Shown here in pieces: positions 31,478 through 54,823 of a stretch of DNA of 64,000 bases (positions are counted from its first letter, which is position 1; every line of letters starts with the position of its first letter). The DNA is taken from assembly GCA_019695345.1 (NCBI GenBank), contig JAIBAE010000012.1, positions 3,732 to 67,731 of the forward strand. The letters run 5' to 3'. This DNA is from Bacteroidota bacterium. GTDB lineage: Bacteria; Bacteroidota; Ignavibacteria; Kapaibacteriales; NICIL-2. A program made the translations under genes and the position numbers. The notes beneath the pieces are model-generated. The model had not been told where the DNA came from. It searched no databases and saw only the letters and a list, made by a program, of their open reading frames with translations.

Positions 31478-32038
31478 AGGTGTGCTGTAGTATTTCCGTA
31501 GAACTGTAGTAATTTCACTTGGCTTCTCTCCGGCATAGAGCTGTTGTAGTTTGCTATACCGCTTGGTGCCGTCCCGCGTAAGCAAAAAACTATTTATCAG
31601 ATAGATAATGTACTGCAAAGCGGGTGTTTGTGCGATAGTTTTCGTCATTTTGTATTTTTTTTGCGTTTTATTGCCTTTTATTGCCTTTTTTTCGCAACTA
31701 AAACGAGTTCAAATGTTGACTTTTATTGTGAAAACGTGGCTTTTTAGGAAGATTACGGTAGTGTTTGAACCGCAAAAATGTATATACAAGATGATACATT
31801 GAGATAAACATAATAGACAGCGGTATAAGTAATAAAAATTTGAAGAAATTTTTAGGATATCATCCTATACTAATCGTTTTGTATCATAAAGTGTAATAGT
31901 AGGTGAACATTATTATGTGCTATCGCAAGACGGCACCGAATAACAAGCAAATCAAACCATTACCTTGCCGGAGAGTACACCATTTGACATTAATTTTTGA
32001 CACATTTAAGATACTTCCCTACGATGTAAAACCCAATT

Positions 32039-33280: not shown

Positions 33281-33371
33281 AAAGAATCCATCAAATTGAT
33301 GAGTACATAGAGGTGTATGTAAATCTAAGTTATATTCTGTTGTCAGTATAACAATAGAATATTTTATTCTT

Positions 33372-33401
33372 TTGTCAACCAACCATAAACTTTTCTATTC
33401 A
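33372..33401 (+). promoter_or_regulatory. Bipartite motif TTGTCAACCA-N13-CTATTCA (candidate ECF-type promoter), site 1
   Basis: Same boxes and exactly the same spacing as 37301-37330 and 50617-50646. It lies 191 nt upstream of ATG 33592. Confidence 0.5.
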
Positions 33402-33591
33402 TTACTGTAGAGTCGTTGGTTAAATACAGGGTAAGAATGGTTCGGACAGCACAGCCAAAATGCATACATAAAATCCTCTGAGAGGTGTGCAACAAGAACC
33501 ATTCTTTCTTTTTCTAACTGAGAAAGGTACCAAATCAGGCAGGATAAAAACCAACAATAAAAATGAATAATCAATTTATTAAGGTGTTTTT

Positions 33592-34524
33592 ATGAAAACT
33601 ATCGGAACAGTACAGATGCTGTGCTTTACGATACTTATAACTGTACAATGTTCATCGCAACTACAGTGTAAAAGTACGGAGCAGTGTACTTATACCGCAA
33701 CAAAGTCAATTCGTGTATTAGTAGTTGCCCAAAGCGCATATAAACGTGAACAAGTGCTAAGGAAAGTATATAGTATTATAGGGGATAGAGTGTTATCTCA
33801 AGCCAATGAGATTATCATTGATTCCTGTGCATCGGTTTCAGGCTCTGTTGAATTGGTACAGTATCAAGGAAAAAGCGAAGCATTGTCATTGTTAAATAGG
33901 AGGTTTTTAATGGACGTACAACCATCTGTCATTCTCATTAACGAGAAAAATGAAGTAAAAGCTATATTGAAAGGCAATGATGTATCAAATGAGCTTCAGA
34001 ATGCTTTAGAGTTTTCAGTTAAGAACGGGAATATTGCCTCAACGTACAGAGAATTCATCTTACGAAACATTGTTTCACGAAACCCCGAAAATGCAGACGC
34101 ATGGGGCGATTTAGGTTCTGAGATAAACTCTCCCACCCGATATACAGAAGCAATATCATGTTGGCAAAAATCACTTCAGTTAGGTTTATACAGTAGCAAC
34201 GATTCATTGTGTGTTATGAACAACATAGGAGATGCATATATGCAGAATACTAACAATTATTTTGAAGCAATTAGAATGTATTCCTTAGCCGATGAAGTTG
34301 CAGCAAGTTTGTGGGAGAAAGCTAGGCTTGCCATCAGAAAAGCTATAGCGTATTCGTTGGCTCATAAAGAAGCGGAATCAAAATCGGAGTTAAACAAATA
34401 CAAACAATATACTACAGTAATGCAGTTAACCCCTGAATCAACAAATGTACTTCTTGAGGATATTCCCTCGGTTGATGTCGTAAAAAGTATGGTAAGTACG
34501 GTGAATGGAAAAATCGGGTTGTAA
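33592..34524 (+). CDS. Hypothetical exported protein, Trx-fold-like N-terminal region (no CxxC) + TPR-like C-terminus
   Basis: Signal peptide. PSVILINEKNEVKAILKG resembles the thioredoxin-fold beta-strand region. NPENADAWGDLGSEI...YTEAISCWQKSLQL is TPR-like. Weak assignment. Confidence 0.55.
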   Translation: MKTIGTVQMLCFTILITVQCSSQLQCKSTEQCTYTATKSIRVLVVAQSAYKREQVLRKVYSIIGDRVLSQANEIIIDSCASVSGSVELVQYQGKSEALSLLNRRFLMDVQPSVILINEKNEVKAILKGNDVSNELQNALEFSVKNGNIASTYREFILRNIVSRNPENADAWGDLGSEINSPTRYTEAISCWQKSLQLGLYSSNDSLCVMNNIGDAYMQNTNNYFEAIRMYSLADEVAASLWEKARLAIRKAIAYSLAHKEAESKSELNKYKQYTTVMQLTPESTNVLLEDIPSVDVVKSMVSTVNGKIGL

Positions 34525-34541
34525 TGTGTTTTCTGTACTCG

Positions 34542-34586
34542 GCTACCTATAAAGCATCATCTGTTTTGTAGGTAGCTTTGTTTTCT
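34542..34586 (+). terminator. Hairpin + T-rich tract between 33592 gene and the ECF sigma gene
   Basis: GCTACCTA-N19-TAGGTAGC followed by TTTGTTTTCTT. Confidence 0.4.
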
Positions 34587-34637
34587 TGGCATTGTGTGGT
34601 ATTTTATGGTGGGTTCCACCTTCTAAAGTTGTTGAGT

Positions 34638-35234
34638 ATGTTTAATGAAGAAGTAGCATTACAGTATATAGCTCTCTATTGTAAAGAGGGCGATGTGTCG
34701 GGGTTCGATAAATTCTATAACCACTGTAGCAAATATGTGTTACGCTGTGCTAAGCGCATTACCCGCGAAGATGATGTTGCCGATGATTTATTTCAGGAAG
34801 TCTGGATTCGTATTTACCGATATGTATGCAGTTTCCGGGGGGAAGCTAAACTGAAAACATGGATGTACAAAATCATCCTGCAAACCTTTACTGTGAGTAA
34901 GCGGAAGTTAATTGCCGGGGTTACACAAACTTCGGATGTTCTGTATGACGAAGGCGATGAAAGTGCCGAATCAAAGATAGAAGACGATAGCCCATCGCCT
35001 GATTTAGTATTGCAAGGCAAAGAAATTGAAATGTTGGTCAGGGATGCACTGCAATTCCTTACTGATTCTGAACGCACGGTATTTGTTATGCGTCAAGACG
35101 GAGAATTATCAATTAAAGAAATTGCTGAGCAACTTGGTGTAACAGACGGAACGATTAAGACCCTGCACTTCAGAGCCGTAAGGAAATTACAAAAGCAGTT
35201 AAAACATTACATTGCAGGGGAGGAGAAGATATGA
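34638..35234 (+). CDS. ECF-type RNA polymerase sigma-70 family factor
   Basis: Region 2 is DDLFQEVWIRIYRY. Region 4 is SERTVFVMRQDGELSIKEIAEQLGVTDGTIKTLHFRAVRKLQKQL. I prefer ATG 34638 because the ORF-track TTG lies inside the upstream terminator tail. Confidence 0.85.
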   Translation: MFNEEVALQYIALYCKEGDVSGFDKFYNHCSKYVLRCAKRITREDDVADDLFQEVWIRIYRYVCSFRGEAKLKTWMYKIILQTFTVSKRKLIAGVTQTSDVLYDEGDESAESKIEDDSPSPDLVLQGKEIEMLVRDALQFLTDSERTVFVMRQDGELSIKEIAEQLGVTDGTIKTLHFRAVRKLQKQLKHYIAGEEKI

Positions 35235-36154
35235 GAGAACTTGACACATACCGTTTATTATTCTCGGAGTATTATACTAACGAACTATCCAATGATTCCC
35301 GTAAAGAATTAGAAGAGATATTTAAACAGCATCCTGATTTGCATCAAGAATACATTGAGTTCGCCGCAACATTGAACTTTATTAATAAAGGTGAAATAGC
35401 CGAGAACGAATATGATTTTGCAAGTATGCTTTCTGCCATTAAACAGGAAGCACAACAACAACAGCAAGCTACTCCATTGCAAAATCTTGTTCAGCAAAAA
35501 GCACAAACATCGCGTTGGCAAAAAATAAAAAATGTTATTGTATTACATCCCTATCAAATTATTGGATATGCTGTTGCAGTATGTTTAGCTGTTGTTGTTT
35601 ATGTAAATAGCATTAAACCGCCACAACTTATTACCAAGCACAACGGGAAAGACTCCACTGGAAAAGACACAACTATTAAACAACAACAAGTTCCCGATAG
35701 AAACCTGACTAACATTGATACAACAACAAATACACTTCCCAAAAAGCAACATAACAATATGCCGCAAGGGGAAAGCTACTATGCACTGGCATCCAATGGT
35801 AATATGTCCCACATTGAGGACGAAACACGTTTATTACGAAATCAATCTTCGGGAGTATTCGGTTTTGCAACAGAGAAACCATTAACAATTACTCGTATGG
35901 AAATGCGATGGCTACAAAATTCACAGGCAAGAGCGTGGGTCCGTATTGATTCCTTGCCGCAGTTGTTTGGTAAACAACATTCTTCAATTCAATCGCAGTT
36001 AATGGTATTACCTTCGGGCAGAGTTCAACGTGTTACAGTACAAACAGAAACAGACTCATTAAATGCAGTAACATTGCGCCGGATACTTGGCATGTGGCAC
36101 TTTGCGCCAGAAAAGAAAAACTCTTATGTGGAAATTAAGTTTTTTGTGCAATAA
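35231..36154 (+). CDS. Putative anti-sigma factor (single-pass membrane protein with extracytoplasmic domain)
   Basis: ATGA overlap with the sigma gene. The N-terminal ~60 aa are helical, there is a central TM (IIGYAVAVCLAVVVYV), and a ~170-aa C-terminal domain. The arrangement is typical of ECF partners. Confidence 0.65.
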   Translation: MRELDTYRLLFSEYYTNELSNDSRKELEEIFKQHPDLHQEYIEFAATLNFINKGEIAENEYDFASMLSAIKQEAQQQQQATPLQNLVQQKAQTSRWQKIKNVIVLHPYQIIGYAVAVCLAVVVYVNSIKPPQLITKHNGKDSTGKDTTIKQQQVPDRNLTNIDTTTNTLPKKQHNNMPQGESYYALASNGNMSHIEDETRLLRNQSSGVFGFATEKPLTITRMEMRWLQNSQARAWVRIDSLPQLFGKQHSSIQSQLMVLPSGRVQRVTVQTETDSLNAVTLRRILGMWHFAPEKKNSYVEIKFFVQ

Positions 36155-36489
36155 GCCTTGAAAGGTTCGTATGAAATATATCGTATGCTTGTGTTTACTG
36201 ATGTGCCAATGCTGTATACTCATAACAAGTTCGAATGCTTATGCTACACGTGTTTATTAAAACCGCATGTTAATGAAGTATATCAGTATAGTATAGGTTG
36301 ACAATGGTGCATTCTTAGGGTTTGACAATACAGGAAGTTAAGTATTATTTACAAAGTAACATACGGTACATTGTAAATAGAATATGTTTCTTTAATACTG
36401 TTCTTTCCGGCTAGGAGGCGTTAGTTGGTTGTATAAGGTTCGGTGCCATCGGGCGATAGCAAAATACGTAATAACAAATTCATTTTTTT

Positions 36490-37239
36490 ATGAAAAAGAG
36501 ATTGATACTGGCAGGTTGTTTTGTAGCTGTAACTCTTTGTGCGTGGTTCTGGTTTGTAAGCCACGAGCAGGTTCATACGGCACTGACCATCGCAGATATT
36601 AAGCAGTATGAATGGAATTTGAATTCGTGTTTTCGTGTTGAACTAGATTCTACGCTTACGCTGAATATGCGTGCCATAAAAAACGATTGCTTTGCCGCAG
36701 CAGTGATTCAGGATATTATTGAACGTGCGGCGTTAGCAAGGTTTTCCGATTATGATTATTCTCACGCCGAGCAGTTATATACACTATTGTATCAACCGCC
36801 GTTTTCTCCTAGGTTATCAATTAGAAATTATAGAATTTCATGCTTGTTGAATTTGAAACAATACAACAATGCGTATGCACTTGCGGCATTATATAATGAT
36901 GACGCAGAACGACAACGCTACGAAATTGGGAAACTGCAATCGTATTATTATCCATCGCGCTCGTTTGCCGAGTCGCAGGATGCAGTTGCATTGCAAGAGC
37001 ATATTAACGATGTTTGCAAGGAGAAAGATTACTGCTATATTTTGTATGGTGTGAGTGCATTACTTGCTGGTAAAGAATTGGTAAAGGATACAACAACTAT
37101 ATACTACCAACAAAAAAGTATGCTGAATGATTCGGGTTATACTGCGTTAGTGCAACAGGATGTAACTACTACGTTGGAGTACTACAATGTGCGTGTTGAT
37201 TCGGCACAGAAGAAACAGCTATATAGATTAATAGAGTGA
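36490..37239 (+). CDS. Hypothetical membrane-anchored/exported protein
   Basis: N-terminal anchor MKKRLILAGCFVAVTLCAWFWFV. No recognisable motif. Confidence 0.55.
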   Translation: MKKRLILAGCFVAVTLCAWFWFVSHEQVHTALTIADIKQYEWNLNSCFRVELDSTLTLNMRAIKNDCFAAAVIQDIIERAALARFSDYDYSHAEQLYTLLYQPPFSPRLSIRNYRISCLLNLKQYNNAYALAALYNDDAERQRYEIGKLQSYYYPSRSFAESQDAVALQEHINDVCKEKDYCYILYGVSALLAGKELVKDTTTIYYQQKSMLNDSGYTALVQQDVTTTLEYYNVRVDSAQKKQLYRLIE

Positions 37240-37300
37240 TACTTCATAAGAAACCTCCGTTGGTATTGTAACCTTCATCCTCACAAACAAATAAAAATAT

Positions 37301-37330
37301 TTGTCAACCACATATAAAGTTGGCTATTCC
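37301..37330 (+). promoter_or_regulatory. Bipartite motif TTGTCAACCA-N13-CTATTCC, site 2
   Basis: Lies 92 nt upstream of ATG 37422. Confidence 0.5.
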
Positions 37331-37421
37331 TTTTAAATACAGGAAGTGCTGATAAGCGGTTCTAGTGCTTGTTAGAGTTAGACGCTTCTTCTACAGTTTT
37401 ACGCAACAATATCGGATTGTT

Positions 37422-37874
37422 ATGATTATTCTTCGTATTGCAGTTATCGGCTCTGTACTGTTATGGTGTGGAAGCATTGTGGTTTGTTTTGCACTCATGA
37501 TAGCACGGTATAACAGATGCAGTATTCGTAAATGGCTGCAAACAATTATTCCGATACAAAAGTTGGAGCAATTAGTTATTAGTAGCATTGTGTTAGTTCC
37601 GGCAGTATCATGGTTGCTGTTTCAGTGGGCAAAAGTAACTGTCACTATAACTCCGGTGCATTGGGACGAATACTACTTTGATATTGTATTGATATGTGGA
37701 ATGATGTGGACAGTACTAACATTTTTTACTACTATCGGTTTCTTGATAGGGTTAGTTCGTCCGGCCTATCTGCTGTTCCGAGGATATAAAGAACTAATAA
37801 CTTCGTATATACTTTGTACGTTTTATACAGTCGGCATGTTACTGCTTGTACATACAGTTCTGACGTTATTCTAA
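37422..37874 (+). CDS. 4-TM membrane protein, paralog A
   Basis: MIILRIAVIGSVLLWCG... The C-terminal VRPAYLLFRGYKELITSYILCTFYTVGMLLLV resembles IKPSLFKFRSRWGLLLSYTLFHVYCVAMMLVF of the 39422 product. Confidence 0.6.
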   Translation: MIILRIAVIGSVLLWCGSIVVCFALMIARYNRCSIRKWLQTIIPIQKLEQLVISSIVLVPAVSWLLFQWAKVTVTITPVHWDEYYFDIVLICGMMWTVLTFFTTIGFLIGLVRPAYLLFRGYKELITSYILCTFYTVGMLLLVHTVLTLF

Positions 37875-37898
37875 GTTCTCTTACCAGAGGATATACTA

Positions 37899-38564
37899 AT
37901 GAAATCACGAGCGTTATATGGACTTCTTGCAGGCGTCGCTACAATAGTAATTGCTGTGGTAAGTATGGTTTGTACAAAAGATACCACCACCACTACAGTA
38001 ACAACCAAACAACCACAACAAGCACAGGCACTACTTCAACAACAACGCAACGAGGATTCCATTCTCAACATAAAATCTCAGGAGGTTATGCAGTATACTG
38101 CCCAAAAACATTTACACATATCTCCGGTAATACTGCTCATTGATATGTCTGTCCCCTCGGGTAAATATAGGTTCTTTATCTATAATACAACTACACGCAC
38201 CATACTTAGCCAAGGTTTAACTACGCATGGTGTTGGTAGCGGACATAACACCGAACACTATATCGAATTCAGTAATGCCGAGAACTCTAACTGTACGCCG
38301 TTGGGTAAATACATTATTGGTAACAGTTATTACGGTCAGGGTGGTTTGCGGTATTCGCTTATTGGACTCGATACTTCAAACTCCAAGGCACAGAAGCGAC
38401 ATATTATTATTCACACAAGCAGTTTTATACCCAACGAAGAACAAGATGAACCACTAATGCAAAGTCAGGGATGTCCAATAGTATCGGAGAAATTTTTTGC
38501 AGAGTTGCATCAGTTCATTGAAAGTCAGAAAGGTAAAAAAGTAATGCTGTATATTTTTCGTTAA
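37899..38564 (+). CDS. L,D-transpeptidase catalytic-domain family protein (YkuD_2-like), membrane anchored
   Basis: LLIDMSVPSGKYRFFIYN...THGVGSG...FSNAENSNCTPLGKYIIG..YYGQGGLRYSLIGLD..NSKAQKRHIIIHTSSFIP...SQGCPIVS matches the YkuD_2 pattern, including the GC(P) active-site Cys. Confidence 0.7.
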   Translation: MKSRALYGLLAGVATIVIAVVSMVCTKDTTTTTVTTKQPQQAQALLQQQRNEDSILNIKSQEVMQYTAQKHLHISPVILLIDMSVPSGKYRFFIYNTTTRTILSQGLTTHGVGSGHNTEHYIEFSNAENSNCTPLGKYIIGNSYYGQGGLRYSLIGLDTSNSKAQKRHIIIHTSSFIPNEEQDEPLMQSQGCPIVSEKFFAELHQFIESQKGKKVMLYIFR

Positions 38565-38589
38565 TCAGAAACGCAAGCACATAGATAGT

Positions 38590-38661
38590 GGTTCCCTCCT
38601 CTGCCGAAGCAAACCTCGTACGCCGGCACACGGGCGGGACACAACGGTACAGCAACGCAGG
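38590..38661 (+). repeat. GC-rich intergenic element, forward copy (pair 2, left)
   Basis: GGTTCCCTCCTCTGCCGAAGCAAACCTCGTACGCCGGCACACGGGCGGGACACAACGG... Confidence 0.65.
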
Positions 38662-38732
38662 TTACAATAACTTCATAAAATATTAACTATGTAATCCTGA
38701 ATGTTATTATATCAGTAATAATAAGGTAGAAA

Positions 38733-39053
38733 ATGAAAATGTACATTGTTGTAAAAAATGAGATCCCGGATGAACTTATCCCCGTAATTGCAGCTCATGC
38801 TTCATTGGCGTGTTATCTACAATTTAAAGATGATGAGAGGATGATAAGATGGATAAATGGTGTTTTTAGAAAAGTAGTATGTTCAGCAAGTAATGATGTT
38901 TTTGAAAAGCTCAAAAATGAGGGTGATTTTATATGCCTAACTGAATCTGTACTAGATAATATTGAAGTGTCCTTAGCATTTTGTCCAAGAGATGAGTACC
39001 CCAAGATATTCAAGTACCTAAGTAAGTGGAAGCCTAGTGGTCAAAAAAAGTGA
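38733..39053 (+). CDS. PTH2-superfamily-like small protein (peptidyl-tRNA hydrolase 2 fold candidate)
   Basis: KMYIVVKNEIPDELIPVIAAHASLACYLQF...W.NGVFRKVVCSASNDVFEKLKNEG.FICLTES...VSLAFCP aligns by eye with the Pth2 pattern KxVxVVRxDLxMxxGKxxAQxxHAA...W...GxxKVVL...L..L...DAG.T...VLAIGP. Confidence 0.45.
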   Translation: MKMYIVVKNEIPDELIPVIAAHASLACYLQFKDDERMIRWINGVFRKVVCSASNDVFEKLKNEGDFICLTESVLDNIEVSLAFCPRDEYPKIFKYLSKWKPSGQKK

Positions 39054-39217
39054 TTGATAAGATTGTAACATAGTGTATCGTGAAACCTGTTGCGCTTTAT
39101 CTCTTTTGTATCTATGGCGGTGCACGTAGTTATTGATAGGCAGAATACAAGTATAACATATACGATAGACAAGGTGCATTATGTGGTAAAAGAATATCAA
39201 CAGGGCGACACAGTTAA

Positions 39218-39276
39218 GGTTGGCTCCGCCTGTGTGTCGGCGCACTACGGGTCGCTTCGGCAGACGGGCGGAGACC
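39218..39276 (-). repeat. GC-rich intergenic element, reverse copy (pair 2, right)
   Basis: The reverse complement GGTCTCCGCCCGTCTGCCGAAGCGACCCGTAGTGCGCCGACACACAGGCGGAGCC aligns with 38590-38640. Confidence 0.65.
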
Positions 39277-39286
39277 AAAAAAGAAT

Positions 39287-39316
39287 TTAAAATAGAGTAA
39301 CAATAGAGTAACGGAT
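39287..39316 (+). promoter_or_regulatory. Tandem 11-nt direct repeat TTAAAATAGAGTAACAATAGAGTAACGGATG, site 1
   Basis: ATAGAGTAACA/ATAGAGTAACG with an 11-nt period. 28/30 identical to 39996-40025. It lies 105 nt upstream of ATG 39422. Confidence 0.45.
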
Positions 39317-39421
39317 GTGGTGAAAATCACTTTATTTTTACTATGTACTTGTTCGGATAATGTACAATCTGCTTTGAATCAATAATCAATAGATACGTAC
39401 ACGTTAACACGAAGAGATATT

Positions 39422-39943
39422 ATGATACTGATAGGAACTTTACTTTGGTTAGTATGCGTGGCTGTTGCCATACTTACGATAATGCGTTTCATGACAACCG
39501 TTAATGCAGCCAAATCACTCACCTCATCTTTTAGTGCAACTATGATGATAGTTACATTGGTTGTATTCACGCTGTTTATGCCTGCAATTAGCGCAGGACT
39601 TTTTTACTGGTATCATCGTTCCGATGAACCCGCAATACCCAGAGTTGAATCTTACAATGAATATAACATGCCCTCAACGGGACAGATGGCTCTATCGGCT
39701 TTTGTAAAAGAGGGTGGGTTTCTTACTACGCTTGTATTGTTATGGTTGACAATGCTTTTTACAAGTTCAATTTTTCTTATCTACAATTTTATCAAACCAT
39801 CGCTGTTTAAGTTTCGGAGTCGTTGGGGACTATTATTATCTTATACGCTTTTTCATGTTTATTGTGTTGCAATGATGTTGGTATTTATTACAACGCAGTT
39901 CTTTTTTGAACGCGGCGTGTATAAGGAGTGGTTTTTACCGTAA
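39422..39943 (+). CDS. 4-TM membrane protein, paralog B
   Basis: See 37422. Same topology and a shared C-terminal motif. Confidence 0.6.
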   Translation: MILIGTLLWLVCVAVAILTIMRFMTTVNAAKSLTSSFSATMMIVTLVVFTLFMPAISAGLFYWYHRSDEPAIPRVESYNEYNMPSTGQMALSAFVKEGGFLTTLVLLWLTMLFTSSIFLIYNFIKPSLFKFRSRWGLLLSYTLFHVYCVAMMLVFITTQFFFERGVYKEWFLP

Positions 39944-39995
39944 CGATTGATAGCAGGATGTTGTTGTTAATAGTTCGAAATCGAGAAACCTTCTT

Positions 39996-40025
39996 TAAAA
40001 TAGAGTAGAAATAGAGTAACGGATG
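39996..40025 (+). promoter_or_regulatory. Tandem 11-nt direct repeat, site 2
   Basis: TTAAAATAGAGTAGAAATAGAGTAACGGATG, 163 nt upstream of ATG 40189. Confidence 0.45.
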
Positions 40026-40188
40026 ACATGTTTCTGTGTATAAATTCGTAGTGTTATTTCTTGAATAGTTTTTCAGTGTGTACTAAATGGCTGCATTAGC
40101 GGCAGTTAGCATTATTTTCGTAGCAAACTTAATTGGACTAAATTATCTAATTTGGTCATGCTTTTTCAATTATACTAAGGGGTATAAC

Positions 40189-41055
40189 ATGAAGTATTTT
40201 TGGTTTACCGTTGTTTACGTACTTGCCATAAGCATACAAACAACAACTATGCAGGCACAGGCAACGTTTGCATCTACGATTGATGAGACGCGGTTTGATG
40301 ATTCAGTTAAGGTATTGGGAATAGGCGGTGTAGATACAGATGTAAAAAGAAAAGGGTGGATATCCAATACATACTCACTAGCTAACAATAATCATTTCCA
40401 ATTGATTAACAATGCTTCTGCCAGCATACCAGCTTTCGACAGTTTGTCAGCCACGGGGGGGTATGTTGAGATTCTTGGAATAAATACAAAATCACCATTC
40501 CGTTTTAGTGTCGGCGCACAAGGAGCCATTAAAAACGATTCATTGCCAAATGAATTTACAGCAAAACTGTTAGCATTAAAAAAAATGTTAAATGGCGGTG
40601 GAAACATAGTCCTGAATATCTCTTTATATCCTGCAACATATTTCAATAAAGATCGCTCTTTAATTCCAATGTTTTATTGGGGCATTAATCTGTCTGGTTT
40701 TACAGATGTAAAGGTACTTAACTCGAAAGAATCAAGACCGGCAAGAGGGCTACAAGGAAGTATAGAAACAGATCTACGATTATTATCTGTAGAAGCTCAG
40801 GATTTTAATGGTAAAAAAACTAATGTGAGTATTGGTATAAGGGGAAAAGCATTATGGAATGTTGCAAACAATCAATTCATTGATAAATACTCAACCAACT
40901 ATAATTTTGATAACATAAAAATGGCTACTTTATCCGTGCTCATTAAATACTATAAAATTGACCTTCAATATACTCACACTTGGGCTCCAGATACAATAAT
41001 ACCAATAGGTTCAGGAGATATGTTTACAATTTCTGTATCTCCAGATAATTTTTAG
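40189..41055 (+). CDS. Putative outer-membrane beta-barrel protein
   Basis: I use ATG 40189, giving the signal MKYFWFTVVYVLAISIQTTTMQAQA. It has alternating-hydrophobic strands and a C-terminal ...FTISVSPDNF with terminal Phe. Confidence 0.55.
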   Translation: MKYFWFTVVYVLAISIQTTTMQAQATFASTIDETRFDDSVKVLGIGGVDTDVKRKGWISNTYSLANNNHFQLINNASASIPAFDSLSATGGYVEILGINTKSPFRFSVGAQGAIKNDSLPNEFTAKLLALKKMLNGGGNIVLNISLYPATYFNKDRSLIPMFYWGINLSGFTDVKVLNSKESRPARGLQGSIETDLRLLSVEAQDFNGKKTNVSIGIRGKALWNVANNQFIDKYSTNYNFDNIKMATLSVLIKYYKIDLQYTHTWAPDTIIPIGSGDMFTISVSPDNF

Positions 41056-41113
41056 GAATGTTTTACCATTCTAAAAATCGGAAACAATTTATAATAACTA
41101 TCTAAGGACTTTT

Positions 41114-42637: not shown

Positions 42638-42789
42638 CGTATACCCTTGGTTGTGGTCTTGCGATTGTCCCTAACTGCTATCGCAAGACCGCACCGATTG
42701 TATATGTATAATAGTTTCTTACTGTGTGGGAGAGAAAGTTGATATTGTTGAAATTTATATATCAATAACCATTACATTTTGAGGGACGT

Positions 42790-44529
42790 ATGAAACCATA
42801 TAAGCTCGCACTTCTGATTGTTTGCTTGCATATACTTAGTATGGGGGCGTGTTGCCAATGCCCTACAACACTATTATCCGAATCGAGTACCAAAAACAAG
42901 AAGGAAATAGAGGAACTGTTACGAACAATACATTACTATTCGGGCTATGGTGATGTTCCTTTGCCTACATTTTGTTTCAGACCAGAACCAGATAAATATT
43001 CAGATAGGAATGGTAAAGAAGTACCTGGCGCATACTACGATGGCGATAGATCTATTGTGATTTATGAAAAATTATACAACGAAGTAAAACAAAAATTTGG
43101 TACAACTGCTAGAGATGCTTTTGCCTATGTTATAGCTCACGAGTTAGCACACTACTTCCATAATCACAACACAAGCAAGTGGATAAACGGCAAACTGACC
43201 CTAAAACTATCATTTGGTTTTGCAACTGCACATTTGACTGATATGCAAGGAGTGGCAGTCAATGATACAAACAACAGCAGGTTGATTGTTGCTGAACACG
43301 ATGCTGATGCAACTGCCGCAATGTGGTGTTACCGTGCGGGGTTTAACCTTAAAAAAGTAAGTAACGAGATGGAATACATTTACAGTACGTATAATTTGCC
43401 AGACAATGATTTGGTTAAATATGGATACCTTCCGTTACGTATTCGGAAAAAAGGATTTAGCGAGGATATTCTGAAAATGGCTCAACAAGCTGCGCATTTG
43501 TTATCGTTTATTGAGTACGCAGTTGCTGTGCAAGATTGGAGTACAGCACAAATGCTATTCAAGTATCTTGATAAATATGAACAAGCATGGTTGCGTACCC
43601 CCGAAATAGAAAATATGTGGGGTGTAATGTTGGCACAGTGGGCATTAACAGAGATGAGTAAAAATGGATTTGCATCGCATCTTCATTATGCATATTGCTT
43701 CCCGTTTACAATGCAACAACCATCTTTATCTACCAGTAAAGGTTCTGCGGAAGAAATCACAGCATTGTTAGACTCAGCTGAGCATCATTGTTCTACGGCT
43801 ATAAAAAATTCAGATTCAACTTACACTGCCGCTTATATCAATATGGGGTTAATTGCCGTATTGCAGAATAACCTACAAAAGGCAAAGCGTTGGTTACAGG
43901 ATGTACACCTTGCTTCCATACCCGATGAACAACTTGCCGCACTGCATATTGCCCGTGGCATTTACGCATTACAGGTTAACAAAACCGATATTGAAACTGC
44001 ATTGAATTTGTTCAAGCAAGCAAAATTTACGTTACCTGTTGTTGCTGAAAACAACGTCAGGTTATTAACTACTACATCAATTCCACACACTGCTCTTTCT
44101 AACAAAAAAGTACCAACGCAAACATTTCTCAACTGGGATAAACCGGATACCATAAAAATTTTCCTTGATACTAACATCCATACTGTAAGGAATAAGATGG
44201 ATACATTGCTCATACGTTCATATCTGCTTTCCGGCAACAAAGATGTTCGATGTACCTATTGCACAATACATAGTCCTAAACCAAAAGTATTTGAAACAAT
44301 GAAATATAAACCGAGTATGGTTGAAGGGCTACAACCTAATAGTAATGGCGATTATGAGTATGCCGAATTTCGAAAAAAGTTTGGTGATAGCGATATGGCA
44401 ACAATTACTAACGGAAGAACAATGATTGCTTATACATTGCCAAATAACGAACACCATAATACACTAATAGTTGTTGTGAATAATGATAATCAATGTATCG
44501 AAGAAGTTTGCCAATGGCGCAACTGGTAA
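42790..44529 (+). CDS. Lipoprotein with M48-like HExxH zinc-metallopeptidase motif and TPR-like region (BepA-like architecture)
   Basis: Lipobox-like LSMGAC. VIAHELAHYFHNH, then AEHDADATAAMWCYRAGF (downstream E/D ligand region). TPR-like AAYINMGLIAVLQNNLQKAKRWLQ. Confidence 0.65.
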   Translation: MKPYKLALLIVCLHILSMGACCQCPTTLLSESSTKNKKEIEELLRTIHYYSGYGDVPLPTFCFRPEPDKYSDRNGKEVPGAYYDGDRSIVIYEKLYNEVKQKFGTTARDAFAYVIAHELAHYFHNHNTSKWINGKLTLKLSFGFATAHLTDMQGVAVNDTNNSRLIVAEHDADATAAMWCYRAGFNLKKVSNEMEYIYSTYNLPDNDLVKYGYLPLRIRKKGFSEDILKMAQQAAHLLSFIEYAVAVQDWSTAQMLFKYLDKYEQAWLRTPEIENMWGVMLAQWALTEMSKNGFASHLHYAYCFPFTMQQPSLSTSKGSAEEITALLDSAEHHCSTAIKNSDSTYTAAYINMGLIAVLQNNLQKAKRWLQDVHLASIPDEQLAALHIARGIYALQVNKTDIETALNLFKQAKFTLPVVAENNVRLLTTTSIPHTALSNKKVPTQTFLNWDKPDTIKIFLDTNIHTVRNKMDTLLIRSYLLSGNKDVRCTYCTIHSPKPKVFETMKYKPSMVEGLQPNSNGDYEYAEFRKKFGDSDMATITNGRTMIAYTLPNNEHHNTLIVVVNNDNQCIEEVCQWRNW

Positions 44530-44573
44530 ATAAGTAAGTACAAAAAGATTGATATACATTTGGTTACAATGAT

Positions 44574-47500
44574 ATGAAAACTCAACTTCACATACTGTTT
44601 ATTTGTTGTGTTATATTCACACTATGTAATACTTATACAAGTAAAGCGCAACCTGATCAACCACAAACTCCACCATCCACCCCAAAAGGTGAGAAGTATG
44701 CGATAGTGATGGCTACAAATAGATATATTGCTTTTCGTACTTTAAACTATGCAGAAGAAGATGCCAGATTAATAAAAAAAATAATAGAAGACGACAGCAT
44801 AATAGGAATAGGTGAGACGAAAAGCGATACTTACAATAAACACTGTTACTTTTATTTGGACACGAATGTTACACCAAGCAATTTTTCGACAGCGTTAAAA
44901 CAAATTGGGAACCAAATTGCGCAAAATCCAAATAAACTAAATCACCCACCCGACACTTTATTTTTTTACTTTTCAGGTCATGGTTTTTTCGATGAAGAAA
45001 ACGATTTGTATTACTTGTGTGGTTACAACGCAGAAAAAACTGGAACAACGGCAGTTTGGGAATTAAAAACTCTTTGGGGCAGGTTAAATAAATTTGCAAA
45101 AAGTTGTAATACTGTAGTGAATGTAGTGATTGATGCATGCCATTCAGGTGGCGTACATAAAGCATCTATTAATGGCGAAGATAAGAAACCACAATGTACT
45201 TTTATTATTTCCACAAAAGACACTTCATCGTCTTTCGAAGATAAATGTTGGGGAGGTGGACACGGTGTTTTCACATACTATCTTGCCCGAGGAATTGTAG
45301 GAGAGGCAGACGAAGATAAAAACGGAGTAATTCAATTATCAGAATTAAAAAAATACTTAAACAACTCATTCAAATCAGATAAATGTTTAAATCAAATTGG
45401 TAATGGTAAGATTCAAAAGCCAAGTATCCTTACAAATAATACAGAAGATGGTGATGAACTAGTAATAAGTAAAAGCCCCGTAAAGAGTTTGGTAAAAGAT
45501 TTTGTTCTGAATCTTGGGAAAGAAAATAATCCTTCAATTGTTGTTATCAATAAAGGCGATAACGATGATAAAAATTTGAAAAAATCTGTTGATTCTGTTC
45601 TTACGTTACTAGAATCAGATAATAAAATATTGTCTGCCTCACAGGTGAGGTATGATTATGTTTTAGAACACGCAAGTAGTGAATATCAAAAGCTCAGTGC
45701 AAGAAATTTTTTACAAAACCAATACCAACGCTATGCTGAAAATTCAATCAATGCCTTCTTCCACGGTGATATAACCCGAGATTACGGTACTGAATTTAAA
45801 CAAGGTAGTGCATACCTTGACTCTGCTATGAAACTTCTTCCCGAAACAACAGAAGATTTAATTGACCTTCGTGATTTTATGTATGGCTATGCAATTGTAT
45901 ATAACTCTGATAGCAGGTTATACTATAAATCAGATTCACTATTTAAAGAGTGTGTAAAGCGTAAACCGCAGTTCACCTACCCATATTACGGTTTAGCCGT
46001 GTTAAATGAGGAACGTTGCCTATATGATACCGCAGAGAAGTTATTTAGAAAATGTATAGCATTATCACCCGAGTGGATGAGACCGTATAATAGCTTGGCA
46101 CAAATGTATAGAGACAGGCACTACTTTAAGCAAGGCCTTGCATTGGCAGACACGGCAATAAAAAGAGACTCTGTAAACCCGAACCCATACATAACCAAAG
46201 CAAACTGTTTATTGGATCTGGGGCATTACAAGCAAGCAGAAGAAGCATACAACAAAGCCCTACAACTCAATAACAACCGTAATAACAATATAACGGCGCG
46301 AATTAAGCGCAATCTGGGAATTTGTTATCGTGAACGTGAAGCAAACACAACATACCGCAAATACCTCAAAGAATCATTTGAGGCAGATTCAACTTACATT
46401 TTTACATTACAGAATTTAGCTGAGTTAAGCAGTCAGGATACAAGTGTTTATCATGGCATTCATACATGGAATACGTACTACAAAAAGATATTGAGTTTAC
46501 CGGAAACTGCTGAAAAGTATTATGTGCTTGGGAGTTTTAATCAATGGTGTGCAGGTAAAATTCCGAATGATAAAGGAGATAGCATAAAACGTTATATGCT
46601 CCTTGACACCGCTAAACGCTATCTGGTGCAAAGTATTGACCTTGACACCTTTAATGTTGATGCATATAAAAAACTATTTTGGACTTATTGGGATTACTCA
46701 TATTACGCATACTATCTAAACGATAAAAGGTTTATCAATAAGAATGATGCAGACGCATTTCAGGTGATTTCAAAAATTGATACCCTTTCAAAAAACCATG
46801 TATCTGAGATACAATATGCAATTGGTTACTACTACTTTTGGAAGAAAGCTGACACTACAAAAGCAATTGAATACTACAAGAAAGCACTACAACTTGAGCC
46901 AGGATACTATTCACCAATAAGAAAACTTGAAGAAATTTATAGCAAGTATGACTCAGCAATACTACAAATGTATTATATGGCAGATAGTACTAATTGTTCA
47001 CCAGTTACAAGCCATGAACTTGCTATGTATTATGAAAGAATTGGTAAACAAGATTCAGCCATGCGAAACTATAAAAATTGTATTGTCTTAGACTCATCAT
47101 ACTTTAAGGTATATCCAAATTTAGCCATACTATCTATGGCAAATGATGTAGAAAAAACCTTAGAATACTGCAAAACGTACATGAAACATAAATCTGATGT
47201 GTTTACACCGTCCAATAATCAAAGGGAATCATTAAATGTTGCAAAAAATGAAATTGAGAATAACAGAAATGTAGAAAGATCTTTATCTGATTTATTATTG
47301 GCAGAATCAGTGAGGTCATGGCGTTTAAAACGATTTGGAGAATGTTTGAGATATGCAGAGGTTTCGTTCGAATTAAATCAAAATAACACAAATGCGATAT
47401 TGCAACTGGCAAAATTATATTACATGATGAATGATAGGCATAAATTGTATGAAATAATCACTTCAATAAAAATAAATAATGAGAATATTTTTGATGCGGA

Positions 47501-47930
47501 TCAGAAGATTATGTATAGTAAACTACAATTACTCGTTGCTATTCAAAATAACGACACTTTAAAAGTAAGGAAGTGTTTAAACTATCTAAATTCAAAGGAT
47601 GGTGATGATAGATTTGATGAAATACCTTGGTTACAACACATAAAAAGATTGTTAGATATAGCTTCATTAACAACTGGAAATACAAAACAACAATTCAAAC
47701 ACATTGCAAATAATGGAATAGTACTCAGTAGCGAAATGAATGTTGATATGAAAACAGGACAATCACTTTCTCAAAATAACTTTTTTTCGATTGTTAAGAT
47801 AAAATCAAAAAATATTCAAGCCATAAAAGGTGAATTTGAACAATCCTTACTTGAAGATGGCTTCCTGTTGAATAATAACACGCGAAGAATACTCTTTGAG
47901 AATGACGAGCAATATCATTTAAACGAATAA
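44574..47930 (+). CDS. Exported caspase-family (peptidase C14) protease fused to a long TPR array
   Basis: Signal peptide. KYAIVMATNRY; His site LFFYFSGHGF; Cys site VVIDACHSGG; EF-hand-like loop DEDKNGVIQLSEL after the catalytic domain; ~700 aa of TPR-like repeats. Confidence 0.85.
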   Translation: MKTQLHILFICCVIFTLCNTYTSKAQPDQPQTPPSTPKGEKYAIVMATNRYIAFRTLNYAEEDARLIKKIIEDDSIIGIGETKSDTYNKHCYFYLDTNVTPSNFSTALKQIGNQIAQNPNKLNHPPDTLFFYFSGHGFFDEENDLYYLCGYNAEKTGTTAVWELKTLWGRLNKFAKSCNTVVNVVIDACHSGGVHKASINGEDKKPQCTFIISTKDTSSSFEDKCWGGGHGVFTYYLARGIVGEADEDKNGVIQLSELKKYLNNSFKSDKCLNQIGNGKIQKPSILTNNTEDGDELVISKSPVKSLVKDFVLNLGKENNPSIVVINKGDNDDKNLKKSVDSVLTLLESDNKILSASQVRYDYVLEHASSEYQKLSARNFLQNQYQRYAENSINAFFHGDITRDYGTEFKQGSAYLDSAMKLLPETTEDLIDLRDFMYGYAIVYNSDSRLYYKSDSLFKECVKRKPQFTYPYYGLAVLNEERCLYDTAEKLFRKCIALSPEWMRPYNSLAQMYRDRHYFKQGLALADTAIKRDSVNPNPYITKANCLLDLGHYKQAEEAYNKALQLNNNRNNNITARIKRNLGICYREREANTTYRKYLKESFEADSTYIFTLQNLAELSSQDTSVYHGIHTWNTYYKKILSLPETAEKYYVLGSFNQWCAGKIPNDKGDSIKRYMLLDTAKRYLVQSIDLDTFNVDAYKKLFWTYWDYSYYAYYLNDKRFINKNDADAFQVISKIDTLSKNHVSEIQYAIGYYYFWKKADTTKAIEYYKKALQLEPGYYSPIRKLEEIYSKYDSAILQMYYMADSTNCSPVTSHELAMYYERIGKQDSAMRNYKNCIVLDSSYFKVYPNLAILSMANDVEKTLEYCKTYMKHKSDVFTPSNNQRESLNVAKNEIENNRNVERSLSDLLLAESVRSWRLKRFGECLRYAEVSFELNQNNTNAILQLAKLYYMMNDRHKLYEIITSIKINNENIFDADQKIMYSKLQLLVAIQNNDTLKVRKCLNYLNSKDGDDRFDEIPWLQHIKRLLDIASLTTGNTKQQFKHIANNGIVLSSEMNVDMKTGQSLSQNNFFSIVKIKSKNIQAIKGEFEQSLLEDGFLLNNNTRRILFENDEQYHLNE

Positions 47931-47957
47931 GTTATTTTTAAAAAAAGGTTAAAAACT

Positions 47958-49652
47958 ATGATAAAAATACTCCAGTACATCTCCACTTTTATACTGTGCG
48001 TGGCGATATTACATTCCAATGTAAATGTTAAAAACGGCAACTTTTTTATAGGATATGTTGACGTATATTTTAACGATAACTTTAAAATTGAGCGTGTGTA
48101 TAATTCTAAAACTGATTTTAAAGGAATGTTTGGTAGGGGTTGGGGATGCGAATACGAAATGTATCTGACTACACTTCCCGATGGTACTATTATGCTGCAC
48201 GAATACGGAGGTGGAGCAGAAAATATCTTCAAACCACGTGGTTACTCGCCTATTTCAGTTACAAATGCAGTCAACAACATAGTTGAACTTGAAATACAAT
48301 ATGGTATCACGCAACCCGAACAACGACTTAATAGAATGAGTAGCTTACAGGATAATTCAAACAGGCGAACCGATGCGTGGAAAGCACTACTCAAAAAGGG
48401 TGTTAAATGGTTCGAAATAGCAACGGGTACAGTATTAACATCGTATGATTTTTCAGCCCAAAAAATTTTAGTAACAGATACATCCTATAACAGAATAAAT
48501 GGAGACATTACTGAAGTGTTTAATAAAAAAGGTCAGTTTGTAAAGCGTATTGTAAAGGATGGCTCCTATATCGTATTAGAGTACGATGCAAATGGTCGTA
48601 TATCCCGTATGAGCAATGATAAAATGAATACCTTAAAATTTCATTATAACAGTATCGGACTGGTATCAAAGATTATTAGTAATAGTACTACTAAATCGGG
48701 AGCATTCAAACAATCCTCATATACGTATGATACTTTACAGTACGAGTTGATTGAATCAAATGATGCTGGTAATAATATATTCAAATACTCATATTCAAAA
48801 GATGGGTATCATAATCTTGTTCAAATTTTGTATCAAGATAATACCACAATGCAAATAGGATATTGGGGTGCCGAAAAGTTTGTAAATGTAAAATCAGCCA
48901 AAGAACGTGATGGAAGATACTACGAATATGATTATATACTACGTAAGAAAGTTGATGAAATCAACCAAAACTATACCGTAACAGTAAGTGTTTATTTGGA
49001 TACTACAAAAACAAATGAAATTTCCAATAGTACATATCTATATATTTACAGAACTTCAAGCTCAGGCAGAGAATGGACTTACTCCCTGAAATCAATTATT
49101 GATGGTGATACTACCGAAACCCGTTACCACGAGAAAACAGGGCTACCTGTGTTTATTGCGAAGCATGGCGATACAACAAAATTCGATTATACACCCAAGG
49201 GGGATGTAACATATAAAGAAACCTCTTATTCAATAAAGTGGATTGATTATTCTTCGTGTAATAAAGTAAGCCGAGTTAAGGAAACAGAAAAGTATAGCAG
49301 AAAACCCGATACAACATGGAGTACATTTGAATACGATTCACTCTGCAACCTAACTATGGCAAAAAATTCAGATGGAAAATTACTGTCATTAAAATATGAT
49401 AACAAGGGGCACATTACTACCCTGTTAGATGAGGAAAACAATCAAACAATTACATTCGAATACAACCAAATCAATAAACCGATATCAATCACTGTTATTG
49501 GTGTTGGTACTATAAAAGTAATCTATAATACCGACAACGAAATTGAAAAGGTTGATAGCGATGGTGGGCGTACTGTTGCAACAAAAGTTACAAGGATATT
49601 TCAAAACCTGCTGGATGTTATACGTCCTGCAGGTGTGTCATTAAATTTTTAG
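47958..49652 (+). CDS. Short RHS/YD-repeat protein without a recognisable C-terminal toxin tip
   Basis: The N-terminus NVNVKNGNFFIGYVDVYF...RVYNSK...GMFGRGWGCEYE is like Rhs N-terminal modules. YD repeats include YDANGRISRMSND, YDNKGHITTLLDEENNQTITFEYN and YTPKGDVTYKE. Confidence 0.7.
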   Translation: MIKILQYISTFILCVAILHSNVNVKNGNFFIGYVDVYFNDNFKIERVYNSKTDFKGMFGRGWGCEYEMYLTTLPDGTIMLHEYGGGAENIFKPRGYSPISVTNAVNNIVELEIQYGITQPEQRLNRMSSLQDNSNRRTDAWKALLKKGVKWFEIATGTVLTSYDFSAQKILVTDTSYNRINGDITEVFNKKGQFVKRIVKDGSYIVLEYDANGRISRMSNDKMNTLKFHYNSIGLVSKIISNSTTKSGAFKQSSYTYDTLQYELIESNDAGNNIFKYSYSKDGYHNLVQILYQDNTTMQIGYWGAEKFVNVKSAKERDGRYYEYDYILRKKVDEINQNYTVTVSVYLDTTKTNEISNSTYLYIYRTSSSGREWTYSLKSIIDGDTTETRYHEKTGLPVFIAKHGDTTKFDYTPKGDVTYKETSYSIKWIDYSSCNKVSRVKETEKYSRKPDTTWSTFEYDSLCNLTMAKNSDGKLLSLKYDNKGHITTLLDEENNQTITFEYNQINKPISITVIGVGTIKVIYNTDNEIEKVDSDGGRTVATKVTRIFQNLLDVIRPAGVSLNF

Positions 49653-49701
49653 TATAAGTTCAATCAACTAACATCCTTCTCACAACATAATAGGAATTCT
49701 G

Positions 49702-50178
49702 ATGCTTCCATCAAAAGTACATTGCTATAACTGCAACAACGAGTTAGAACTTGATTTCAACGAGCGTAAGAATCATTCGTATGTATGTCCGGTATGTAAA
49801 AGCGGTTGGCTTGACCCCAAGCAAAACACTACGTTGGAAGAACAAGTATCCTGCGGCAAATGCAACAGCATGATAGAACTCTCCGAACAAGAAAGAAACA
49901 ACGTATCATTTACATGCCCGGTATGTTCAACCCCATGGGCAACAAACAAACAAAATGCAATGCCAATAGTAAGTAATGCTCAAACTGTAAATACTCAAGA
50001 GGAAGCAAACAGTATGATAACAAAAGGGTTACTGTTTCTTGTTGGGGGGATACTTATAACAGGTATCACATATGCATCTGCATCTGAAGGCGGAGGAACC
50101 TACTTTGTTATGTACGGACCTATTATTTATGGTGTTATCACTTTAGTTCGCGGGCTTTCCATGAAATCAAACTCATAA
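49702..50178 (+). CDS. Double zinc-ribbon protein with C-terminal membrane anchor
   Basis: Two copies of Cx2C-N17-18-Cx2C (CYNCNNELELDFNERKNHSYVCPVCKSGW / CGKCNSMIELSEQERNNVSFTCPVCSTPW), then two TM helices. Confidence 0.65.
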   Translation: MLPSKVHCYNCNNELELDFNERKNHSYVCPVCKSGWLDPKQNTTLEEQVSCGKCNSMIELSEQERNNVSFTCPVCSTPWATNKQNAMPIVSNAQTVNTQEEANSMITKGLLFLVGGILITGITYASASEGGGTYFVMYGPIIYGVITLVRGLSMKSNS

Positions 50179-50237
50179 TGCACGATTCTGTATAAGCGTA
50201 TTCAAAACATAGTATTTTCGATAAAAGAATATTGCTT

Positions 50238-50302
50238 AACCACCTCAGCCGAAGCAAACGTTCAGCACGCCAACCATGTGCGAACCGTTCCTCCTGCTTC
50301 GC
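50238..50302 (+). repeat. GC-rich intergenic element, forward copy (pair 3, left)
   Basis: AACCACCTCAGCCGAAGCAAACGTTCAGCACGCCAACCATGTGCGAACCGTTCCTCC. Confidence 0.6.
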
Positions 50303-50482
50303 TATCTTTGATAAGAATTGAATTAGAATTACCAATTACCAATTACCTTATCTGTGAGTACCAATCAAAATTTTGCTTTCATACAAACACATATTCAGGC
50401 ACTTGATTTCTTGCTGTCGATACTCATTGAAACACCACAATCTGATGAATGTCTAAAAGAATGTACGTTAATAAAGATGTAA

Positions 50483-50547
50483 TGCTGAACGCTTGGCTCG
50501 CACAGGGTTTGCGTGCTTGAGTTTTCGTTTAGGCAGAGGCGGTAACC
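50483..50547 (-). repeat. GC-rich intergenic element, reverse copy (pair 3, right)
   Basis: Reverse complement is GGTTACCGCCTCTGCCTAAACGAAAACTCAAGCACGCAAACCCTGTGCGAGCCAAGCG... Confidence 0.6.
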
Positions 50548-50616
50548 ATAAATTTCTCACCTAAAAGTTTCTACAATTACCATATCGGAAAATTATTTTT
50601 TCTGCCTGTAAAATAG

Positions 50617-50646
50617 TTGTCAACCATGTTCTGTGTAGAGTATTCC
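50617..50646 (+). promoter_or_regulatory. Bipartite motif TTGTCAACCA-N13-GTATTCC, site 3
   Basis: Lies 59 nt upstream of ATG 50705. Confidence 0.5.
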
Positions 50647-50704
50647 GTTCTGTTGTAACCGGTACAACAAAAAACACTTACAAACTCAATTTTTAGGAAT
50701 ACTT

Positions 50705-51664: not shown

Positions 51665-51751
51665 TAAACTACCGTTAAGCCCGGTGCTGGATATTCTCTG
51701 TGCCGGGTTTTTGTTTAACACATCATTTACTTATTATAATAACTACATACT

Positions 51752-53385: not shown

Positions 53386-53397
53386 AACGTTGGTGAG

Positions 53398-54732: not shown

Positions 54733-54823
54733 GTGATTAAGTTTAGTATTTATACTGATGGTTCAATAATACGATACATACATACATCATAATTAGCTAC
54801 GCCATTACTCACGAAGCCGTAAT

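Follow-up and report, generated by a model that had tools for sequence, protein, structure and literature searches.

Three copies of a bipartite element on a Kapaibacterium genomic island: candidate promoters for an island-encoded extracytoplasmic function sigma factor

What reads a two-part DNA element that recurs three times, in the same orientation and with the same spacing, on a genomic island that itself encodes a sigma factor? The question is raised by a 64,000-nucleotide (nt) stretch of contig JAIBAE010000012.1, here called the window, that is, the whole stretch of DNA that was analysed, which carries a tRNA-inserted island of about 35 kb. The element, TTGTCAACCA-N13-STATTCM, consists of a 10-nt box 1, a 13-nt spacer and a 7-nt box 2. 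The reading that we favour and, going by the features of the DNA, hold to be reasonably probable is that the three sites are promoters of the extracytoplasmic function (ECF) type, most likely read by the island's own sigma factor, encoded at 34638-35234. The host is a Candidatus Kapaibacterium (Bacteroidota), not a Bacteroides-type bacterium; GCA_046329015.1, an assembly of Candidatus Kapaibacterium, encodes near-identical PrsW and integrase proteins that fall into the same 90%-identity clusters.

Occurrence and conservation of the element

An exact search of the window returns three matches, each on the plus strand, in intergenic DNA and in the orientation of the gene that follows. All three lie inside the island, and none is found in the approximately 29 kb of chromosome that flank it in the window.

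33372..33401, plus strand: motif copy 1, TTGTCAACCA-N13-CTATTCA, exact match, ending 191 nt upstream of the ATG at 33592
37301..37330, plus strand: motif copy 2, TTGTCAACCA-N13-CTATTCC, exact match, ending 92 nt upstream of the ATG at 37422
50617..50646, plus strand: motif copy 3, TTGTCAACCA-N13-GTATTCC, exact match, ending 59 nt upstream of the ATG at 50705
21923..56868, no strand: genomic island, ~35 kb, from tRNA-Leu (21923-22004) to a repeat of the tRNA 3' end (56846-56868), holding all three copies

The three gene starts match independent gene calls on other contigs. The copy number, the identical 13-nt spacing, the 10/10 identity of box 1, the strand, the intergenic placement, the distances to the genes and the absence of any other intact copy in the window had all been reported in an initial annotation of this DNA, and the exact search bears them out. 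Box 2 had been given as 6/7 identical; the similarity is real, with an in-register range of 5-6/7.

The recurrence is not due to chance, because the pattern has no match in 100 dinucleotide-preserving shuffles and is rare in public DNA. In genomes totalling 596 Gb, the extended pattern matches 72 times, and in a metagenome collection 82 times. These public matches are scattered singles from unrelated phyla. None of the public matches adjoins a homolog of an island protein, except for one fragment of this same island; a generic ECF sigma factor about 5 kb from one match is the sole island-protein-like neighbour near any of them. Nor does the window hold degenerate copies: the next-best sites have at least 3 mismatches and number 21, against 22.6 expected at the shuffle rate, and a spacing-tolerant scan leaves a clear gap between the three perfect sites and the noise. 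Six metagenome-assembled genomes of Desulfamplus (loci L066, L095, L218, L232, L234 and L237) have one exact match to the extended motif each, probably one conserved orthologous site of that genus, unrelated to the island.

Similarity among the copies is confined to two unequal, non-palindromic boxes at a fixed spacing. Compared in register, the spacers are identical at 1-7 of 13 positions, the 60-nt flanks are 23-35% identical, which is the background for AT-rich DNA here, and a MAFFT alignment yields no conserved columns besides the boxes. The products of the genes that follow copies 1 and 3 are distant paralogs, to judge from a BLASTP alignment (22% identity over 183 aa, E 8e-8), and the upstream regions of these genes have nothing in common but the boxes. 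Selection, as opposed to recent duplication, would have kept or recruited the boxes, because these are identical whereas the spacers and flanks are at background and the paralogs only 22% identical. Copies 1 and 2 are also followed by a common 9-mer, AAATACAGG (33418-33426 and 37335-37343), which may be a coincidence: it starts 17 nt past the end of copy 1 and 5 nt past that of copy 2, and copy 3 has no such 9-mer.

Box 1 without box 2 is found twice on the other strand.

36295..36304, minus strand: 9/10 copy of box 1 without box 2 (pattern search), probably not functional
39743..39752, minus strand: exact box 1 10-mer without box 2 (pattern search), inside open reading frame 39422-39943, probably chance

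The first of these is the reverse half-site that the initial annotation had placed at about 36297, and a second degenerate box, TTGTCAAACC, lies 24 nt from it at 36318-36327; the fourth exact 10-mer had been overlooked. Both half-sites look like chance occurrences and are treated as such because neither was found in the diverged island variant C, described below, where homology stops at 36199 and the DNA around 36295-36304 is absent.

The comparison of islands draws on variants from closely related strains only. In variant B (GCA_046329015.1 and several Logan contigs), the segment 42743-49661, which holds M48-like, caspase-TPR and DUF6531 genes in the window and corresponds to L181 1632-8957, is exchanged for caspase, TPR and CHAT genes. 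Variant C combines the variant B cassette (variant C cassettes, L189 12582-20933 and L329 1-8500) with an insert of about 6 kb after the putative anti-sigma gene that encodes a 607-aa protein, two trypsin-TPR proteins, a short RtcB and a C70/C39 peptidase; it lacks the minus-strand gene at 32039-33280 that precedes copy 1 in the window. In the related islands in which they were checked, a comparison that the initial annotation had suggested, the boxes of copies 1-3 are intact. Copy 3 is intact in variant B (loci L181 and L182). Copy 2 is intact in variants B and C, with substitutions in variant C just upstream and in the leader. The homology of variant C to the window (98.2%) runs from 33371 to 36199 and so starts 1 nt before copy 1, the DNA upstream being not recognisably related; both boxes of copy 1 are unchanged, 2 of 13 spacer bases differ, and about 4 differences fall in the next 190 nt of leader. 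Because the homology begins at this point, copy 1 appears to have been inherited together with the sigma gene. The motif therefore seems to travel at the head of the sigma module, and the boxes appear more constrained than the spacer, in what is a very small sample.

The island sigma factor as the candidate reader

The two genes central to the favoured reading lie between copies 1 and 2.

34638..35234, plus strand: ECF (group 4) sigma factor, 198 aa (Sigma70_r2, Sigma70_r4, TIGR02937)
35231..36154, plus strand: putative single-pass anti-sigma factor, 307 aa, with a 4-nt overlap with the sigma stop codon and weak model matches

The product of 34638-35234 is an ECF (group 4) sigma factor by its domain content: about 200 aa with sigma-2 and sigma-4 only (Pfam Sigma70_r2, E 2.9e-10; Sigma70_r4/r4_2, E about 1e-13) and a score of 103.9 bits on the ECF model TIGR02937, above the cutoff of 42.9. 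The initial annotation had named it as such, and the domains and the model score agree. Its closest solved relatives are AlgU, SigW and RpoE. Identical copies are found on five contigs, in the same island, and the best of the non-identical homologs from 5.8 billion protein clusters and 185,579 species genomes do not exceed 35% identity. Footprinting by way of these homologs was tried and given up, the two that were inspected lying in unrelated gene neighbourhoods and offering no usable comparison.

The 307-aa protein is a putative anti-sigma factor, an assignment suggested by the gene overlap, a weak sub-cutoff match to the anti-sigma model NF052375 (E 0.0012) and a topology, namely, a helical N-terminus and a hydrophobic helix at 107-126, taken from a low-confidence single-sequence AlphaFold model (pLDDT 36). 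It also has a weak TonB_C match. A word-index search found no homologs of it, and an exhaustive HMMER search gave only an 88-aa fragment on a 519-nt contig.

ECF promoters have an AAC-containing -35 element and a short -10 element about 16 nt apart. At the island sites, AAC is present in the TGTCAACC part of box 1 in copies 1-3 as well as in the copy of variant C, and AAC-N16-TATTC has the same spacing in 3/3 copies, in line with a spacing of about 16 +/-1 nt, the reference value being general background. The initial annotation had pointed to this ECF-like geometry, and a directional, bipartite, intergenic element on an island that encodes an ECF sigma factor is indeed what is found. A literature search for GTCAAC-type ECF -35 boxes returned nothing relevant. 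ECF regulons usually encode envelope products, and all the products encoded downstream of the copies have signal, lipoprotein or transmembrane features as read from their translations.

33592..34524, plus strand: predicted TPR lipoprotein, 310 aa, no CxxC; weak Pfam TPR matches, signal/lipobox-like N-terminus read from the translation
34541..34577, plus strand: terminator-like hairpin, 16-bp stem then TTTGTTTTCTT T-tail, between 33592 and the sigma gene
37422..37874, plus strand: polytopic membrane protein, 150 aa, first gene 3' of copy 2, from the translation, with the same call on other contigs
37899..38564, plus strand: YkuD_2 L,D-transpeptidase (PF13645, E 5.4e-34)
50705..51664, plus strand: secreted thioredoxin-like (WCVWC) and TPR protein, 3' of copy 3 (Thioredox_DsbH, Thioredoxin_2 and TPR matches)
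51677..51716, plus strand: intrinsic-terminator-like hairpin, GC-rich stem then TTTTTGTTT, between the thioredoxin-TPR and Zn-peptidase genes

The gene at 33592 is the first of the sigma module. That its product and that of 50705 are both thioredoxin-fold-like with TPRs, as the initial annotation had it, is borne out for their relationship and for the thioredoxin matches of 50705; the product of 33592 has neither CxxC nor a Pfam thioredoxin match, and its thioredoxin-like nature comes from the alignment to 50705 alone. The protein encoded at 37422 has no family match in profile searches. Its gene ends 24 nt before the start of the L,D-transpeptidase gene, and the two are probably co-transcribed.

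In the mechanism that we propose, TGTCAACC, with its AAC core, would serve as the -35 element and TATTC, 15 nt beyond it, as the -10 element, and RNA polymerase carrying the island sigma factor would be the reader. The putative membrane anti-sigma factor would keep the sigma factor inactive until an envelope signal frees it. Transcription would then start about 6-10 nt past TATTC, near 33407-33411, 37336-37340 and 50652-50656. The first transcript would encode the CxxC-less thioredoxin-like/TPR lipoprotein (33592), the second the small membrane protein and the YkuD-type L,D-transpeptidase (37422-38564), and the third the secreted CxxC thioredoxin-TPR protein (50705).

How far these transcripts would extend depends on the two hairpins. 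The stretch 34525-34600, which includes the first, folds at -26.4 kcal/mol (z -5.9; 0/200 shuffles as stable), and the second, with its U-tract (51677-51710), gives -18.4 kcal/mol as a local fold in a 60-nt window. By this layout, the motif-driven units look like promoter-gene-terminator cassettes. Expression of the sigma and anti-sigma genes from copy 1 would require read-through of the strong hairpin, so that any positive feedback is likely to be attenuated; expression of the Zn-peptidase, winged helix-turn-helix (wHTH) and GH5 genes from copy 3 would likewise require read-through. The initial annotation had the sigma factor autoregulated: copy 1 does precede the gene upstream of sigma, but a hairpin with a T-tail intervenes. 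It had also treated the thioredoxin-TPR and Zn-peptidase genes as one block, which would assume read-through of the terminator between them.

The sigma gene may have a weak housekeeping-type promoter of its own after the hairpin, the candidate being TTTG-N20-TATTTTAT at 34577-34608, within 60 nt of the hairpin. An exact TAGCTTTG octamer at 34573 overlaps the 3' arm and tail of the hairpin. Elsewhere on the island, a hairpin of -38 kcal/mol in 60 nt and with no U-tail (39219-39278) occupies the 368-nt gap between genes 38733-39053 and 39422, and part of it recurs at 40499-40519.

Several observations weigh against the island sigma factor reading ECF-type promoters at these sites. The -10 box, (C/G)TATTC(A/C), is not of the common CGT or GTC type; because ECF groups vary in -10 sequence, this lowers the likeness to the common consensus while leaving the mechanism possible. 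With the strong terminator-like hairpin parting copy 1 and 33592 from the sigma gene, the arrangement is not clearly the classic autoregulatory one, and autoregulation would need read-through. The sigma and anti-sigma factors lack close relatives and hence provide no independent phylogenetic footprint, and the recovered island copies all come from closely related strains, 88.9-100% identical over the shared segments. In variant C, the one candidate for an extra site, 94 nt upstream of RtcB, reads TTGTCAACGG, then GTGTTC after 12 nt; with 2 box 1 mismatches and a changed spacing, it does not stand out from the noise. Three copies at 10/10 with no degenerate relatives are a tighter set than most sigma regulons. 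Finally, the scan of host DNA covered the 64-kb window, and copies outside the island would point to a chromosomal sigma factor.

The regulon is, in any case, smaller and less clearly autoregulatory than first proposed. There are three putative motif-bearing promoters, covering about four genes for certain, and the claim of the initial annotation that the motif ties the island cargo into one circuit does not hold for the trypsin, M48, caspase-TPR and DUF6531 genes, which have no copy.

Other explanations of the three sites

The alternative that survives best, and one that we regard as unlikely all the same, is that the sites are weak sigma-A promoters at which the conserved GTCAACCA is a transcription-factor operator overlapping the -33 region and the spacer. 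TTTG is present at the 5' edge in 2/3 copies and in the variant C copy, and the TA of TATTC lies 21 nt past it, where the -33/-7 spacing of Bacteroidetes promoters is 19-21 nt (PMC7366714). Helix-turn-helix (HTH) proteins are encoded on the island, and candidates for the binding protein would be the island wHTH protein (52663-53385) and the HTH_17 protein (22086-22700). Copy 3, however, has GTTG in place of TTTG, and the element is asymmetric, with no dyad or direct repeat, which is unusual for the site of an HTH dimer.

The downstream box also counts against this alternative. The host, judging by its DNA, uses Bacteroidetes-type housekeeping promoters: a TTTG-N19-TATTTTTG that fits the consensus perfectly precedes tRNA-Leu, the desaturase, PrsW and thiolase genes have an exact TAnnTTTG at a distance of 31-51 nt upstream, and intergenic DNA holds the octamer at about twice the density of coding DNA. 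Of the 6 positions that this octamer specifies, the -7 candidates at the three sites, TATTCATT, TATTCCTT and TATTCCGT, agree with it at 2-3; all have C in place of the strongly conserved T of position 5, and the TTTG part is absent. The 390 nt upstream of 33592, of 37422 and of 50705 hold no exact TAnnTTTG. The initial annotation had found the motif unlike the Bacteroidetes housekeeping consensus, and the contrast with the exact octamers of the real promoters in the window agrees with it. A housekeeping-promoter reading of the sites is accordingly poor, and it is the version with both a weak sigma-A promoter and an operator that is kept, as a minor rival.

Alternative-sigma promoters read by a chromosomal sigma factor of the host, not by that of the island, seem to us quite improbable. 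The structural evidence for such a reader is the same as that for the island sigma factor; with a hairpin standing between copy 1 and the sigma gene, the autoregulatory link of the motif to sigma is less strong, and Bacteroidota typically encode many ECF sigma factors (PMC12596196). Nevertheless, with 3/3 copies on the island and none in the flanking chromosome, and with the boundary of the conserved sigma module in variant C falling at copy 1, so that motif and sigma are inherited together, the distribution of the element argues for a reader that belongs to the island.

A function outside transcription, be it a recombination or cassette-junction site, a remnant of a small repeat or chance recurrence, is hardly credible, although the island is modular, with cassettes swapped between strains, and one variant breakpoint coincides with copy 1: the remaining breakpoints (31977, 36199, 42743 and 49661) lie away from the copies, two of them abutting a REP-like element, copies 2 and 3 are at no junction, the similarity stops at the boxes, so that the copies are not a repeat family, and chance is excluded by the shuffles and by the rarity in public genomes. 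Three specific candidates were also rejected: a dispersed repeat (repetitive extragenic palindrome, REP, or miniature inverted-repeat transposable element, MITE) or duplicated segment, on the spacer, flank and MAFFT comparisons given above; att or arm-type sites of the integrase, the copies lying 6-15 kb inside the island ends (~22004 and 56846); and a recombination site, given where the other breakpoints fall. A sigma-70-type promoter read on the reverse complement (TTGACA) was discarded as well, since copies 2 and 3 have no minus-strand gene for such a promoter to drive and the motif persists in variant C, from which the minus-strand gene next to copy 1 is missing.

The island and its place among known systems

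Beyond the genes discussed so far, the left part of the island carries the HTH_17 gene and a type I restriction-modification system with a RhuM/Fic gene, followed by the minus-strand gene at 32039-33280, of no assigned family, and then by 33592, the sigma gene and the gene for the 307-aa membrane protein. Several unassigned genes separate the latter from the 37422-38564 unit. Further cargo comprises a trypsin-like peptidase, an M48-like peptidase, a caspase-TPR protein and a DUF6531 protein, and the right part holds the 50705 thioredoxin-TPR gene, a Zn-peptidase-like gene, the wHTH lipoprotein gene (52663-53385), a gene for a GH5 enzyme and the integrase gene:

55444-56658, minus strand: tyrosine integrase gene, adjoining the tRNA 3'-end repeat

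Rfam gave no match in the island interior (31400-57200), and PADLOC, run on the cargo proteins, gave domain-level protease matches only and no known defence system.

Several other features of the window were noted in passing. In the left half of the island, hsdS (25099-26320) is the most diverged gene relative to L172 and L189, at 81-97% identity or unalignable, with its neighbours at 98-99.6%, which suggests differing target specificities between strains. The RhuM/Fic gene has one unit of a 147-nt direct repeat (71% identity; 26986-27132 and 27294-27440) immediately before it and the other at its beginning. REP-like intergenic elements of about 60-65 nt, with the core TGCTATCGCAAGACGGCACCGA...AAACC.TTAC.TTGC.GG, follow many island genes in both orientations; they occur in the window at 31562-31587, 31918-31977, 36439-36464, 42676-42743 and 57041-57066, and in L189 at 9170-9232, 9565-9625, 14405-14470, 16475-16540 and 17675-17735. 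The variant breakpoints 31977 and 42743 are ends of such elements, which may be hot spots of cassette exchange. A tandem of two AATAGAGTAR units with an 11-nt period lies upstream of genes 39422 and 40087 (39291-39311 and 39999-40019), in each case inside a 32-nt repeat whose copies are 94% identical, and a single unit (L189 18358-18367) precedes the gene for the 741-aa trypsin-TPR protein of variant C; direct repeats at an 11-nt period are typical of winged-helix regulators. Outside the island, a giant open reading frame (3762 aa, 2042-13330) has internal repeats, with many 10-mers present 10-21 times, that dominate the repeat content of the window.

A broader view of the island is rather doubtful. 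It would be a self-contained mobile envelope-response module, in which an orphan sigma/anti-sigma pair of undescribed specificity, TGTCAACC-N15-TATTC, travels with its own promoter-gene-terminator cassettes, and the circuit would prepare or protect the envelope against polymorphic proteases, making this a new kind of conflict or defence island under ECF control. The cassettes in question are the two thioredoxin/TPR paralogs and the L,D-transpeptidase unit, which stand beside strain-variable caspase-TPR, CHAT, trypsin-TPR and C70/C39 genes.

If the island sigma factor does read the three sites, they would reveal the promoter specificity of an orphan ECF sigma factor in Kapaibacterium, a little-studied lineage, extend by one case the short list of defined ECF promoters in Bacteroidota, and show cleanly a sigma/anti-sigma pair that moves horizontally together with a small regulon of its own. 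The pair could then serve as an orthogonal sigma-promoter part in synthetic biology. The general understanding of ECF regulation would be unchanged. The circuit would be of an ordinary regulatory kind.

Among known systems, the RpoE, AlgU and SigW-like modules share with the island the directional bipartite motif with an AAC-containing upstream box, a short downstream box and fixed spacing, the envelope-protein genes, and the ECF sigma gene whose stop codon is overlapped by a membrane-protein gene. The island differs from them in its -10 element, TATTC in place of CGT, GTC or TCTGA, in the 10 bp over which the -35 identity extends, in the strong hairpin between the promoter-proximal gene and the sigma gene, in a sigma factor at most 35% identical to any other sequence with an anti-sigma candidate that has no full-length relative, and in its location on a tRNA-inserted element. 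The Bacteroidetes housekeeping promoter (-33 TTTG, -7 TAnnTTTG) resembles the island sites in the TTTG-like 5' edge of most copies and in the TA 21 nt further on, whereas the TTTG half of the -7 box is absent from 3/3 copies.

In Bacteroides thetaiotaomicron, non-canonical bipartite -30/-10 promoters, known as PM2, have been attributed to the ECF sigma factors SigW-1 and SigH-1 (PMC7366714, PMC12596196). As described there, PM2 has TGTT near -10 and was derived from mapped starts, unlike the TATTC of the island, which was read from the sequence, and its sigma factors are unrelated to the island sigma factor at the family level. By the same description, PM2 and the island element belong to the same phylum, share a bipartite -30/-10 architecture distinct from TTTG/TAnnTTTG, and are both tied to stress-type genes and ECF sigma factors.

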